A stretch of 32,000 nt of DNA, taken from the NCBI GenBank assembly GCA_026625185.1, contig CP113000.1:585622-617621 (forward strand), read 5' to 3'. A program made the position numbers and the translations under genes. The notes under the pieces were generated by a model, which saw only the letters and a program-made list of their open reading frames with translations, was not told the DNA's origin and did not search any database. Numbering within the stretch: the stretch's first letter is position 1; each line of letters begins with the position of its first letter. The DNA is from Thermodesulfobacteriota bacterium. Lineage in GTDB: Bacteria > Desulfobacterota > WTBG01 > JAGOGO01. Below, one piece after another: positions 23,454 to 27,039 of the stretch.

Positions 23454-24278
23454 TTACCTGCACTCTGCGACGGATTCTTCCGTGCACGCGCTCACCATGT
23501 GTGCCGCACTCTTCAAATCCGCAGGAAAATCGACCTCACAGCTCCGCAGACCTTCAATTGAACATGTCCAAACCTTCATGGTGGGACACAAATCTCGAAT
23601 TACGGACAAGTACCATTTCCGGGAAGACGAAGGATCGCCCATGGCTTTTTCAAGCCCTTGGCGGAAAAGAGCCGGGCCTTCCCCCCGAAAAAGGATCATC
23701 CCCACTGACTCGCCGTCCGTCTTTTCGGGATCGAGATCTTTGCCGATGTTGATGAGTCTTTGTCCTTCCAGGGTCACTTTCATGTCATCGGCGTCGTAGT
23801 GGGACTTGTACGTGATCACTACGGTCACCGGGTGTACGGCTCTACTCAGCACCCGCCGTACCACCCCGGCTTCGAACAACGTGTCCCCGTTAAGCAGGAA
23901 AAAATCTTCATTCATCTCGTCCCGAGCCATCCAGCAACTGACGAGGTTGTCCGTTTCGGCAAACTTAGGGTTTTGGATAAGAGTAATGCGACCCACGCCA
24001 TAGCGCTGGGTCAAAAGCCGCTCAACCTGATCAGCGCCATAACCGACAACTACGCTTACTCGGTCTATCCCGGTGACAAGCAGTGTATCGATCTGCCACT
24101 CAATCAATTTTTTCCCCTGAATGGGCAAGAGACATTTCGGAGTTTCAGCCGTAAGCGGCAACAATCGTTTTCCCTGGCCGGCACTTAAAATAATAGTTTT
24201 AATAAACAGCCTCCCTAAAATAATTGTTTCACTCGGAGAATGGAAAAACGCCTCGCCTTTAGGTAAAGGCTTAAGCAA
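23454..24278 (-). CDS. LicC/IPCT-like cytidylyltransferase (sugar- or alcohol-phosphate nucleotidyltransferase)
   Basis: IILSAGQGKRLLPLTAETPKCLLPIQGKKLIEWQIDTL, VVVGYGADQVERLL, N-KFAETDNLVSCW and FFLLNGDTLF are colinear with pneumococcal LicC as I recall it. The start is ambiguous: TTG 24278 has no SD, whereas ATT 24203 lies 6 nt after GGGAGG. Confidence 0.75.
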   Translation of the reverse strand: MLKPLPKGEAFFHSPSETIILGRLFIKTIILSAGQGKRLLPLTAETPKCLLPIQGKKLIEWQIDTLLVTGIDRVSVVVGYGADQVERLLTQRYGVGRITLIQNPKFAETDNLVSCWMARDEMNEDFFLLNGDTLFEAGVVRRVLSRAVHPVTVVITYKSHYDADDMKVTLEGQRLINIGKDLDPEKTDGESVGMILFRGEGPALFRQGLEKAMGDPSSSRKWYLSVIRDLCPTMKVWTCSIEGLRSCEVDFPADLKSAAHMVSACTEESVAECR

Positions 24279-24335
24279 GCCGAAACTTTGAACCCGATAC
24301 CAAAAGGCATTTATACACTAAACTAATTAAGTGAT

Positions 24336-24872
24336 ACCTAAACTGAGCGATTTTTCTTCGCTAATATACCCAAATCATGGTAGCACAGGTCAGAATATTT
24401 CACCTTTGATAACCGGCGAGATGCCTTTTCTACGATGTTTTGTTAATAAAATCGCTAAGTTAGTTGATATTTATTATTGATTATAATTTATTTATAACAT
24501 TAAATCACTCTTGTCCAAATTTTTTATTGATTATAATTTATTTATAATATAAAATAACTTTTTTCAAAATTAAGTTTTTTTAAAAAAAACAATATGTTGG
24601 ACAGAAGAATGAACATGGGGTATGGTTACCTCCTCGACCCCCTGAAATAACTCTATTGAAAGGCCTTTTGCTCTTAGGAAACGAAACCTTTGCAAAAAAT
24701 ATTTTTTGGTCACCCGGAACTAGTTTTAGGTTCTCGGAACATGTTGATTTTATTAGATGCTGAAACAAGTTCAGCATAACATAATAGTCTTAATTGACAT
24801 TTGGGCAACAAGCTCTTCTGACCTGTCCTACTGTGGTTTTGGAACCTTAAACAAGAATCGCTCAGTTTAGGT
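24336..24872. mobile_element. 537-bp noncoding element bounded by perfect 17-bp inverted repeats (MITE-like)
   Basis: ACCTAAACTGAGCGATT at 24336..24352 is the exact reverse complement of AATCGCTCAGTTTAGGT at 24856..24872. The interior is AT-rich and has no credible ORF. It contains a 2 x 50 bp tandem repeat and an 8-bp-stem hairpin, ATGCTGAA-acaag-TTCAGCAT (24757..24777). I saw no target-site duplication. Confidence 0.45.
24471..24570. repeat. Tandem direct repeat, 2 x 50 bp
   Basis: Copies 24471..24520 and 24521..24570 match at 43 of 50 positions by hand alignment. This includes a perfect 24-nt core, TTATTGATTATAATTTATTTATAA, at 24474..24497 and 24524..24547. Confidence 0.85.
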
Positions 24873-25021
24873 CTCGAATACCATCAACGTTCGAAGGTTT
24901 TCGCTACTTTTCACTGAAAATTTTTCTGGCTTTTTACAACTAATCGGGAGAAAAACCAAATTTTTTAATGACAGACTTATTTTTTGATTGAATAAGTAAA
25001 AATTTTGTGTTAAGAAAAAAA

Positions 25022-25054
25022 ATTAAATATTATTAATGTGTAATAATATTTAAT
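25022..25054. promoter_or_regulatory. Perfect 14-bp inverted repeat with a 5-nt spacer (candidate operator) upstream of the FAAL operon
   Basis: ATTAAATATTATTA-atgtg-TAATAATATTTAAT. A second perfect 12-bp inverted repeat (ATACTATAAAAT 25068..25079 and ATTTTATAGTAT 25100..25111) overlaps a consensus TATAAT at 25109..25114. Confidence 0.4.
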
Positions 25055-25275
25055 GGATATTATAAAAATACTATAAAATATTAGGTTATTTTCTATTTGA
25101 TTTTATAGTATAATTTGTTTAAAACATCACTTTCATCTTAAAAAAACCCCATTAGCATCACGTCGGAAAAATTTTTGAGAGGATATACTAAGGAATTTAT
25201 AAAGTTCCACGTATAAATTAGGAATAAAGTTTCTAAAAAAATGTAGTCATTTTGAACATCAAGGAGTCTATTCTT

Positions 25276-27039
25276 ATGGAGGCTACGCCGACCCAAAACG
25301 ATTTGCAGTTGCGACTGGCAGATTTCTCGAGCCTGGCAGAAGCAGTGGATTACGCGGCACAAGGTAAAACAGGATTCAACTTCTATCGCGGGGGGAAGAT
25401 AGTGTCTGTTCTCCCCTATGCGAAATTACGGGAAAAAGCGATAATTCTTGCGCGTCGTCTTTGCGGCTTAGGTGTGGAGCGGGGAAGTCGGGTTGGCCTG
25501 GTGGCTGATACCGAGCCGGCTTTCATGATTTTTTTCTTCGCCTGCCAGTACGCAGGACTGGTTCCGGTTCCTCTGCCGGCTTTTTTCCATATGGGTAGTC
25601 ATAAAGCCTATGTGGAACAGTTGCGGCGGCTGCTCATCAACTGCGATGCGGAAATAGCTGTTGCTCACAAAGGCTATTTCGAGTTTCTCAATAAGGCGGC
25701 AGAAGGACTGAATCTTCGTTTCGTGGGTACTCCCGAAGCCTTCGCAGAACTCCCTGAAGCGTCGACCACCCTGCGGCCTCTTGAAAGTGACGAACTGGCA
25801 TACCTGCAATACACTTCAGGAAGCACCCGCTTCCCCCGGGGGGTAATGATTACCCAGGCCACCTTAATGAGCAATCTAGCGGACATCAGCATTCACGGGG
25901 TTAAGGTACGGCCGGAAGATCGCTGCGTGTCATGGCTTCCTTTTTATCACGATATGGGGCTCGTGGGGCTGGTGCTGGTTCCGGTAGCATCTCAGAGATC
26001 CGTTGATTATTCCAGCACTTTTGATTTCGCTATGCGCCCCAGACAATGGATAGCGTTGATGAGCCAGAACAAAGCGACTATTTCTTTCAGCCCCCCGTTT
26101 GGTTACGAGCTGTGCGCCCGCCGAATAAGGCCAGAGGATATTGCCGGGTTTGATCTCAGCAACTGGCGTGTTGCCGGCGTTGGGGCGGAAATGATTCGTC
26201 CCGGACCGCTGGAGGATTTTGCCGGGGTCTTCTCTTCGTGCGGGTTTAAAGAGGAGGCATTTCTCGCTTGTTACGGGATGGCCGAATGCTCTCTTGCCGT
26301 GAGCTTTGCGCCGCTTGACCGTGCGCTGGAGTTGGACTACATTGATGGGAACAGCCTTGCCCGAGACAAAAAAGCCGCTCCCATTGATCCGGCACACAAG
26401 AAGGATAGTGCCCGGGTGAAGCAGTTTGTTAAGTGCGGCATACCGTTGCCGCAGTATGAAATTTCCGTGCGGGATTCACAAGGACGGGATTTGCCGGATA
26501 GACATTGCGGAACCCTCTTTGTGCGGGGACCCAGTGTTATGAGCGGCTATTTCGCCGATCCCGAAAATACCAATGCGGTGTTGTCTTCTGAGGGTTGGCT
26601 TAACACCGGAGATTTGGCATACCGGATCTCCGGCGAAATCGTGATTACGGGCCGAAAAAAGGACCTCATTATCATCAACGGCCGCAATATTTGGCCGCAG
26701 GATCTGGAATACCTGGCGCAGGCGCAGCCGGAAGTAAGATCGGGGGATGCGGCTGCCTTCTCGGTGCCGGGTCCGGATGGGGGAGAAAAGGCGGTAATCA
26801 TGATCGAGTGCCGCGAGTCAGACGCTGCAAAACGTACTGCGCTCATAGAACGTTTGCGGACCATATTTCTTGAAGAGCTCGGGCTGGACTGTTTGATCTG
26901 TCTTGTCCCTCGTAATACTTTACCACGCACGACATCAGGTAAACTGTCCCGGTCTCAAGCCCGTCAAAGATTCCTCGAACAATTCGGCAAAGAGCTGCTG
27001 ACGCAATCGAACATGGACATATATAAACAGGCGAGTTAA
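25276..27039 (+). CDS. Fatty acyl-AMP ligase (FAAL-type adenylating enzyme), likely acyl-ACP synthetase for sphingolipid synthesis
   Basis: AYLQYTSGSTRFPRGVMIT is an FAAL-style AMP-binding motif. Also present: WLPFYHDMGL, GYGMAE, GWLNTGDLAY, GRKKDLIIINGRNIWPQD and a C-terminal TSGK. AAGGAG sits 9 nt upstream of ATG 25276; the track start 25252 is TTG. Confidence 0.85.
   Translation: MEATPTQNDLQLRLADFSSLAEAVDYAAQGKTGFNFYRGGKIVSVLPYAKLREKAIILARRLCGLGVERGSRVGLVADTEPAFMIFFFACQYAGLVPVPLPAFFHMGSHKAYVEQLRRLLINCDAEIAVAHKGYFEFLNKAAEGLNLRFVGTPEAFAELPEASTTLRPLESDELAYLQYTSGSTRFPRGVMITQATLMSNLADISIHGVKVRPEDRCVSWLPFYHDMGLVGLVLVPVASQRSVDYSSTFDFAMRPRQWIALMSQNKATISFSPPFGYELCARRIRPEDIAGFDLSNWRVAGVGAEMIRPGPLEDFAGVFSSCGFKEEAFLACYGMAECSLAVSFAPLDRALELDYIDGNSLARDKKAAPIDPAHKKDSARVKQFVKCGIPLPQYEISVRDSQGRDLPDRHCGTLFVRGPSVMSGYFADPENTNAVLSSEGWLNTGDLAYRISGEIVITGRKKDLIIINGRNIWPQDLEYLAQAQPEVRSGDAAAFSVPGPDGGEKAVIMIECRESDAAKRTALIERLRTIFLEELGLDCLICLVPRNTLPRTTSGKLSRSQARQRFLEQFGKELLTQSNMDIYKQAS

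Follow-up and report, generated by a model that had tools for sequence, protein, structure and literature searches.

Among bacterial MITEs, the target duplication is TA for the Correia elements and TNA or TA for the MITEs linked to IS630. Insertion sequences of the IS1380 family have ends that begin with CC, and the invertible switches known as invertons are bounded by inverted repeats of 10-30 bp. IS1247, a member of the IS1380 family, carries 16-bp inverted repeats and a 5-bp direct repeat (PMC3281130, Table 2), and elements of the family mobilise adjacent DNA in the form of 'TMo' elements (PMC3281130). The segment analysed here (537 bp, positions 24336-24872) is very probably a nest of independently inserted non-autonomous elements within a long, AT-rich and fast-changing divergent spacer, and functionless as a unit. 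Its components are one complete and one half copy of a first MITE family (family B), a chimeric member of a second (family A), a local tandem duplication and stretches of native spacer. The 17-bp inverted repeat that bounds it is formed by the matching ends of two separate family B copies. MITE sequence together with MITE target duplications covers 327 of the 537 nt (ca. 60%), or ca. 70% when the 50-nt duplicated copy is added, and the remainder is poorly conserved spacer.

Positions refer to the window, that is, the whole stretch of 32,000 nucleotides analysed (G000:585622-617621, G000 being the 3.30-Mb source genome), unless a genome or contig is named. The segment is situated in a 973-nt divergent spacer, to the left of which lies a nucleotidyltransferase gene described earlier as LicC-like (23454-24278, minus strand; Pfam NTP_transferase with E 5.6e-13, also NTP_transf_3). 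To the right begins a sphingolipid operon, the first gene of which (25276-27039, plus strand) was identified by Pfam as AMP-binding, of the fatty-acyl-AMP-ligase type, followed by reductase/epimerase, ACP and class I/II aminotransferase genes (Pfam). An exact-protein look-up with the first operon gene returned no record. The dsrA gene is present in G000.

The features listed in the sequence-only reading of the segment were all recovered. The perfect 17-bp inverted repeat ACCTAAACTGAGCGATT is at 24336-24352, with its exact reverse complement at 24856-24872, and the arms extend imperfectly to ca. 63 nt at 78% complementarity (24333-24395 against 24816-24875). A tandem repeat of 2 x 50 nt with 86% identity between the units (24469-24568), the palindrome AAAGGCCTTT (24659-24668) and an 8-bp-stem hairpin (24757-24777) were located as well, together with a minus-strand ORF of 65 amino acids (24580-24777). 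This ORF extends into the family A copy and over sequence that has indels in the related contig L201, and is therefore not a gene, in agreement with the view that the segment holds no credible ORF. The assertion that a 17-nt inverted repeat would not arise by chance was correct for this particular pair, on account of its 63-nt extension and its membership in a repeat family, but it overstated the rarity of such repeats: some perfect 17-nt inverted repeat, at any spacing, occurred in 19% of 100 first-order Markov simulations of the window, and after scaling to a spacing of ≤600 nt the chance was below ca. 1%. It is also true that the 537 bp as a whole have no flanking direct duplication, with TGATA on the left and TCTCG on the right; unlike the whole block, each component family B copy does carry a target duplication of its own.

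When searched against its own genome, the complete 537-bp segment was single-copy, and its pieces recurred elsewhere. The proposed count of copies in the same genome and in relatives thus gave a divided answer, the whole block being unique but its parts multi-copy, with an empty site found in L201. Positions 24683-24813 matched about nine other loci in G000 at 78-89% identity, 24344-24461 matched 191914-192031, and both arms of the inverted repeat matched 1473738-1473791, a copy 860 kb away. The two arms are 78% alike mutually, against 81% and 87% to this distant copy, and since each is closer to it than to the other arm, they are not a co-evolving pair. The earlier suggestion of a MITE or decayed insertion sequence accordingly named the right kind of element but the wrong unit, as the 537 bp are not one element.

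In the alignment, a family B element opens with the terminal repeat CCTAAAYTGAGCGATT, which is followed by an arm (CTTGTTTGCTAAGGTGCCCAAACCACGG) and then by a single GC-rich hairpin or two of them (TAGGACAGGCG...CGCCTGTCCTA); another arm leads to the terminal repeat in inverted form. Copies measure ca. 100-235 nt, are non-coding, and are bounded on either side by the 16 bp of CCTAAAYTGAGCGATT. In G000, nhmmer recovered four that are complete or nearly so, in addition to the half copy that forms the right arm of the segment. Matches to the terminal repeat numbered 5 in G000, 2 in G001, 6 in G002, 42 in G003 and 9 in G006, and a reversed control pattern gave 0; nearly all of them were arranged as inverted pairs 101-235 nt apart, the sole long pair being that of the window (535 nt). 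Among 22 copies examined with their flanks, from G000, G002, G003 and G006, a 5-bp AT-rich target duplication was perfect in 16 and retained four of the five bases in 4 more. Copies are located between divergent, convergent and co-directional genes alike, which argues against a dedicated regulatory site. One copy in G003 is 99% identical to G000 1473692-1473791. An empty site for this latter copy was sought in G001, G002 and G003 and was not found, the corresponding places being gaps of 654 nt and 2767 nt and a contig break.

Genome G003, of the same genus, holds at least ca. 20 family B copies, mostly of exactly 139 nt, compared with 4.5 in G000, and several of its contigs stop within family B copies. 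Together, the copy number and the contig ends point to a recent burst, which also fragments the assembly.

The left arm of the inverted repeat belongs to a complete family B MITE of 128 nt with IS1380-type ends (24337-24464, plus strand; nhmmer 131 bits over the full profile), which is flanked by the 5-bp target duplication TGATA on the left (24332-24336) and on the right (24465-24469). The left 17-mer is made up of the first 16 nt of this copy and the flanking A. The right terminal repeat of the copy is degenerate (AATCGCTAAGTT-AGT, three changes) and its inner hairpins are eroded; the copy aligns end to end with G000 191906-192034 and 1473692-1473791. The corresponding site is empty in the metagenome contig LQYC01004454.1 (L201), in which the flanking gene is 93.5% identical and the first operon protein 94%. 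There, a single TGATA is present, the left family B copy is absent, and the 50-nt unit occurs once. The junction reads AAGTGATA/CTTATCATTGAT in L201, versus AAGTGATA, the 128-nt family B copy and TGATA/TTTATTATTGAT in the window. This is a presence/absence polymorphism of a family B copy with an intact empty site. The rest of L201 is collinear and in the same orientation, including the native spacer segment C, the family A copy, and the right half copy followed by TCTCG.

The right arm is part of a truncated family B copy of 56 nt (24816-24871, minus strand; nhmmer hit at genome positions 610494-610434, profile 2-65), which retains an L-type arm and a terminal repeat. Its last 16 nt and the flanking T constitute the right 17-mer, and the surviving target duplication TCTCG follows at 24872-24876, as identified from the flanks of a full copy in another genome. 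This full copy, of 134 nt, occupies the orthologous site in G002, of the same genus (G002:C14:8570-8703); its right flank is conserved, and it is flanked by TCTCG and TCTTG. To its left, G002 has 330 unrelated nucleotides. The left repeat is absent from both L201 and G002. From these comparisons, the left copy appears to have inserted at TGATA after the G000 lineage split from that of L201, and the right copy, in opposite orientation and common to the relatives, is older and has lost its inner half in this lineage. With an old and shared right arm and a lineage-specific left arm, the inverted-repeat pair is limited to this genome. The left copy is degenerate for an insertion that postdates the split, so that it either came from a source that was diverged beforehand or was removed from L201 by precise excision.

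Between the two family B copies, the interior consists of three parts. The 2 x 50-nt tandem duplication lies in AT-rich native spacer on the plus strand, and only one unit is present in L201. Segment C (24569-24682) is native spacer collinear with L201. It holds TTGGACAG, the partner of CTTGTCCAA at 24510-24518, as well as the GGGGTATGGTTACCTCC hairpin and the palindrome AAAGGCCTTT. Segment C is kept at ca. 81-82% identity in two relatives (L201:2010-2125 and G001:C34:5720-5856, the latter also as L012 1501-1637), and no other copy of it was found in G000. The segment also contains the inverted pair TTGTCCAAA/TTTGGACAG and a GC hairpin of 6-7 bp (GGGGGTA..TACCCCC). In G001, the motif TTTTGGACAG.A.AATGA occurs three times within 300 nt upstream of an AmmeMemoRadiSam radical-SAM gene. 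Beside segment C in G001 (G001:C34; L012 1665-2928) lies an intact insertion sequence that is of the rve-integrase type, matches the IS481 model weakly and has a left end starting GAATTGCCTCAAAT, and decayed or truncated copies of this type of element, one of them with several stop codons, are located at G000 273481-274632 and 3103270-3103773. Segment C (24541-24680) was considered as a part of this IS481-like element and rejected, because the left end of the element starts 28 nt beyond segment C and the decayed G000 copies are without it. For the GTTCAG hairpins, the cyanobacterial repeats HIP1 and SDR type were considered and also rejected; the 44 copies of HIP1 in 3.3 Mb are no enrichment.

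The third interior part is a chimeric family A MITE of 133 nt (24683-24815, plus strand), in which the left end is of A1 type (GAAACCTTTGCAAAAAA), the right end is of A2 type (ATTTGGGCAACAAGCTC) and a target duplication is lacking, and which contains the 8-bp-stem hairpin noted above. Its right end abuts the family B remnant exactly at TTCT/GACC, and the same chimera is present in L201. Family A was found by nhmmer at ca. 15 loci in G000, and many copies occur in G002, G003 and G006. Its two subfamilies, A1 and A2, are both exactly 132 nt long and have in common a core of ca. 98 nt with two hairpins; the 8-bp-stem hairpin falls within this core. A 17-bp terminal repeat GGGCGTGTTGCCCAAAT and a 4-bp duplication (perfect in six of seven copies) characterise A2, and a 17-bp terminal repeat GAGACTTTTGCAAAAGT and a 5-bp duplication (perfect in two of three copies) characterise A1. 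Chimeras occur in both arrangements, the opposite one at G002:C2:9766-9907. Further family A copies were observed at G000 1073313-1073447, 1114049-1114183 and 1392359-1392487 and on several G003 contigs. No autonomous partner for family A was identified.

The abutment could be accounted for if TTCT in the old family B copy was the insertion site of an A2-type MITE, which may then have recombined with an A1-type MITE located upstream, with deletion of the intervening DNA; this would leave an A1/A2 chimera abutting the family B remnant. Such exchanges between A1 and A2 do occur, as indicated by the oppositely arranged chimera in G002. The combination of one core with two different sets of ends and two duplication lengths, and with chimeras both ways, might also be read as a selected passenger module (structured DNA or RNA, or a terminator) that was captured by two transposition systems. 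We regard this as improbable, the alternative being that the core is plain junk. A family A core common to two end sets is the one mild curiosity of the segment.

To the right of the segment, the remainder of the spacer (24877-25275, plus strand) is conserved with L201 and G002 at 24877-25013 and 25164-25275, and variable at 25014-25163. This variable part is AT-rich, contains perfect palindromes of 14 bp and 12 bp, and is replaced in L201 by ca. 446 unrelated nucleotides. The spacer is very plastic and turns over quickly.

The origin of the family B ends was traced by scanning the exact 16-mer CCTAAAYTGAGCGATT over 596 Gb of genomes, a search space in which several hundred matches are expected by chance. 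Among the matches listed, 61 of 120 loci have an inverted partner with ≤3 mismatches within 3.5 kb. Most of these pairs, among the matches listed, are 150-270 nt apart, which indicates MITEs; the groups represented are Thermodesulfobacteriota, Nitrospirota, Bacteroidota, Planctomycetota (Scalindua), Deferribacteres and others. Pairs 1.4-1.8 kb apart, again among the matches listed, are few. Two elements of 1728 bp with B-type ends encode ORFs that pass the 180-bit cut-off of NF033539, the NCBIfam model for the IS1380 family transposase: one in a Spirochaetota MAG (L114), with the target duplication ATCTC and an ORF of 217.8 bits, and one in a Bacteroidales MAG (L131), with an ORF of 194.3 bits. 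Autonomous partners with the same ends thus exist, in other phyla. In addition, a decayed 1444-bp element has the same B-type ends (L126), 1766 bp are enclosed by B-type ends with the target duplication AGCTA in an Acidobacteriota sequence (L079), and on G006:C269 the exact family B terminal repeat comes after the C-terminal end of an IS1380-family transposase. The MITEs and the full-length IS1380-type elements share the outer 16-19 nt only, with unrelated interiors. When plasmids were searched for a named protein related to the full-length transposase, identity reached 37% at most. Family B has IS1380-type ends and, as judged by these comparisons, appears to be derived from IS1380-family elements.

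No intact cognate IS1380 transposase was found in G000. The only IS1380-family transposase remnant of this genome (2606879-2607673) scores 152.5 bits, below the 180-bit cut-off, and has an internal TGA, and no B-type terminal repeat was found near it. Intact IS1380-family elements are present in G002:C45, of the same genus, and in G006:C50, with related but different ends (CCTYAATCCAGCGATA). As the sole IS1380 transposase gene of G000 is decayed and without matching ends, the family B copies in this genome are probably immobile at present, that is, fossils.

A competitor to a nest of separate insertions is that the 537 bp constitute one mobile unit, either as one long MITE or as a composite in which a transposase moves the two inverted IS1380-type ends together. 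The two 16-bp terminal repeats are intact, inverted and outward-facing at a distance of 535 bp, IS1380-family elements are known to mobilise adjacent DNA ('TMo', PMC3281130), and at L165:3071-5059 two inverted B-type ends 1989 nt apart flank a 375-aa ferredoxin-like ORF. This last locus has an 89-nt MITE at its right end and no matching target duplication, and is probably another chance bracket. Against a single unit, the interior and the right end occur in L201 although the left end does not, which shows that the parts arrived one by one, and the empty site largely refutes the idea. The two sides carry different target duplications (TGATA versus TCTCG), the block is single-copy in G000, no other pair of terminal repeats across the five related genomes is spaced by more than 235 nt, and an intact cognate transposase was not found in G000. 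We therefore hold a single mobile unit to be very unlikely, although two IS1380-type ends could move the 537-bp block as a unit even now. An invertible switch, flipped by a recombinase at the 17-bp repeats and controlling either the nucleotidyltransferase gene or the sphingolipid operon, deserves equally little credence. Its appeal lies in a perfect 17-bp inverted repeat around some 500 bp between divergent genes, with promoter-like hexamers inside, yet these number 4 against 5.3 expected in shuffled sequence. No tyrosine or serine recombinase gene (Phage_integrase, Resolvase) is present in the window, the nearest being ca. 100 kb away; the repeats are transposon ends that recur at unrelated loci; the left one is missing from L201 and G002; and the interior runs in the same direction in both G000 and L201. 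The invertible or looping regulatory segment put forward in the sequence-only reading consequently received no support.

Nor did the long structured RNA offered there as a further explanation, in which the ca. 60-nt arms would close a helix around a non-coding transcript. The segment has a predicted fold of -147 kcal/mol (z = -7.9 in comparison with shuffled sequences), but a strong fold of this kind is explained by nested palindromic MITEs, and the closing helix cannot form in L201, from which the left arm is absent. Indels of 26 to 133 nt, moreover, set the interiors of close relatives apart. The Rfam search that had been suggested gave no match at gathering score over the whole window, and in the spacer, at E up to 10, only one chance-level match (E = 0.53), well below its gathering score. 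Such an RNA is extremely improbable. Somewhat less remote, and compatible with a nest of MITEs, is the co-option of individual pieces, either by displacing or supplying a promoter or by providing terminator or insulator hairpins between the divergent genes. The left family B copy separates the start of the nucleotidyltransferase gene from the remaining spacer, at a distance of 58 nt upstream of its longest ORF, and in two other places a family B copy is located between convergent genes, so that its hairpin might terminate transcription. No terminator-like site was found in the spacer, however, the insertion is lineage-specific, and the gene contexts of the family B copies are inconsistent, and we consider co-option unlikely. 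Any effect of the MITEs on the expression of the two flanking genes would be incidental.

The segment, read as a nest of MITEs, is ordinary selfish DNA, and family B is an apparently unnamed family of a familiar MITE type. For annotation, this means that the long spacer before the bacterial sphingolipid (ceramide) operon should not be taken for an inverton, for a new RNA or for a control region of elaborate design. It also provides a caution, in that two copies of one MITE landing head to head yield a perfect inverted repeat as a by-product. For the biology of mobile elements, an apparently unnamed MITE family with IS1380-type ends is cleanly documented here. The value of the locus lies in the empty site, the 5-bp duplication, the burst in one sister genome, and the occurrence of the same 16-bp ends across several phyla.

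In comparison with known systems, the segment resembles invertons of the fimS and Bacteroides types in having inverted repeats around a few hundred base pairs upstream of an operon. It differs from them in that no recombinase is nearby, the repeat pair is not conserved in relatives, the repeats are transposon ends, and no second orientation was seen when G000 was compared with L201. The likeness of family B to bacterial MITEs, such as the Correia/NEMIS elements of Neisseria, RUP of Streptococcus pneumoniae and ERIC of enterobacteria, is closer: it is short and non-coding with terminal inverted repeats, and shares with them a fixed-length duplication, internal hairpins, intergenic sites, variable copy number and nested insertions. 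Unlike in those MITEs, however, the sequence, the ends and the 5-bp target duplication are its own. A literature search, not exhaustive, found no paper on MITEs derived from IS1380, and family B is seemingly unnamed. In relation to the IS1380 family itself (IS1380, IS1247, ISEcp1, ISPme1), the family B copies differ in carrying no transposase, but their 16-bp repeat is identical to that of 1.7-kb elements passing the IS1380 model, and, as in IS1247, a 16-bp inverted repeat is combined with a 5-bp duplication (PMC3281130, Table 2).
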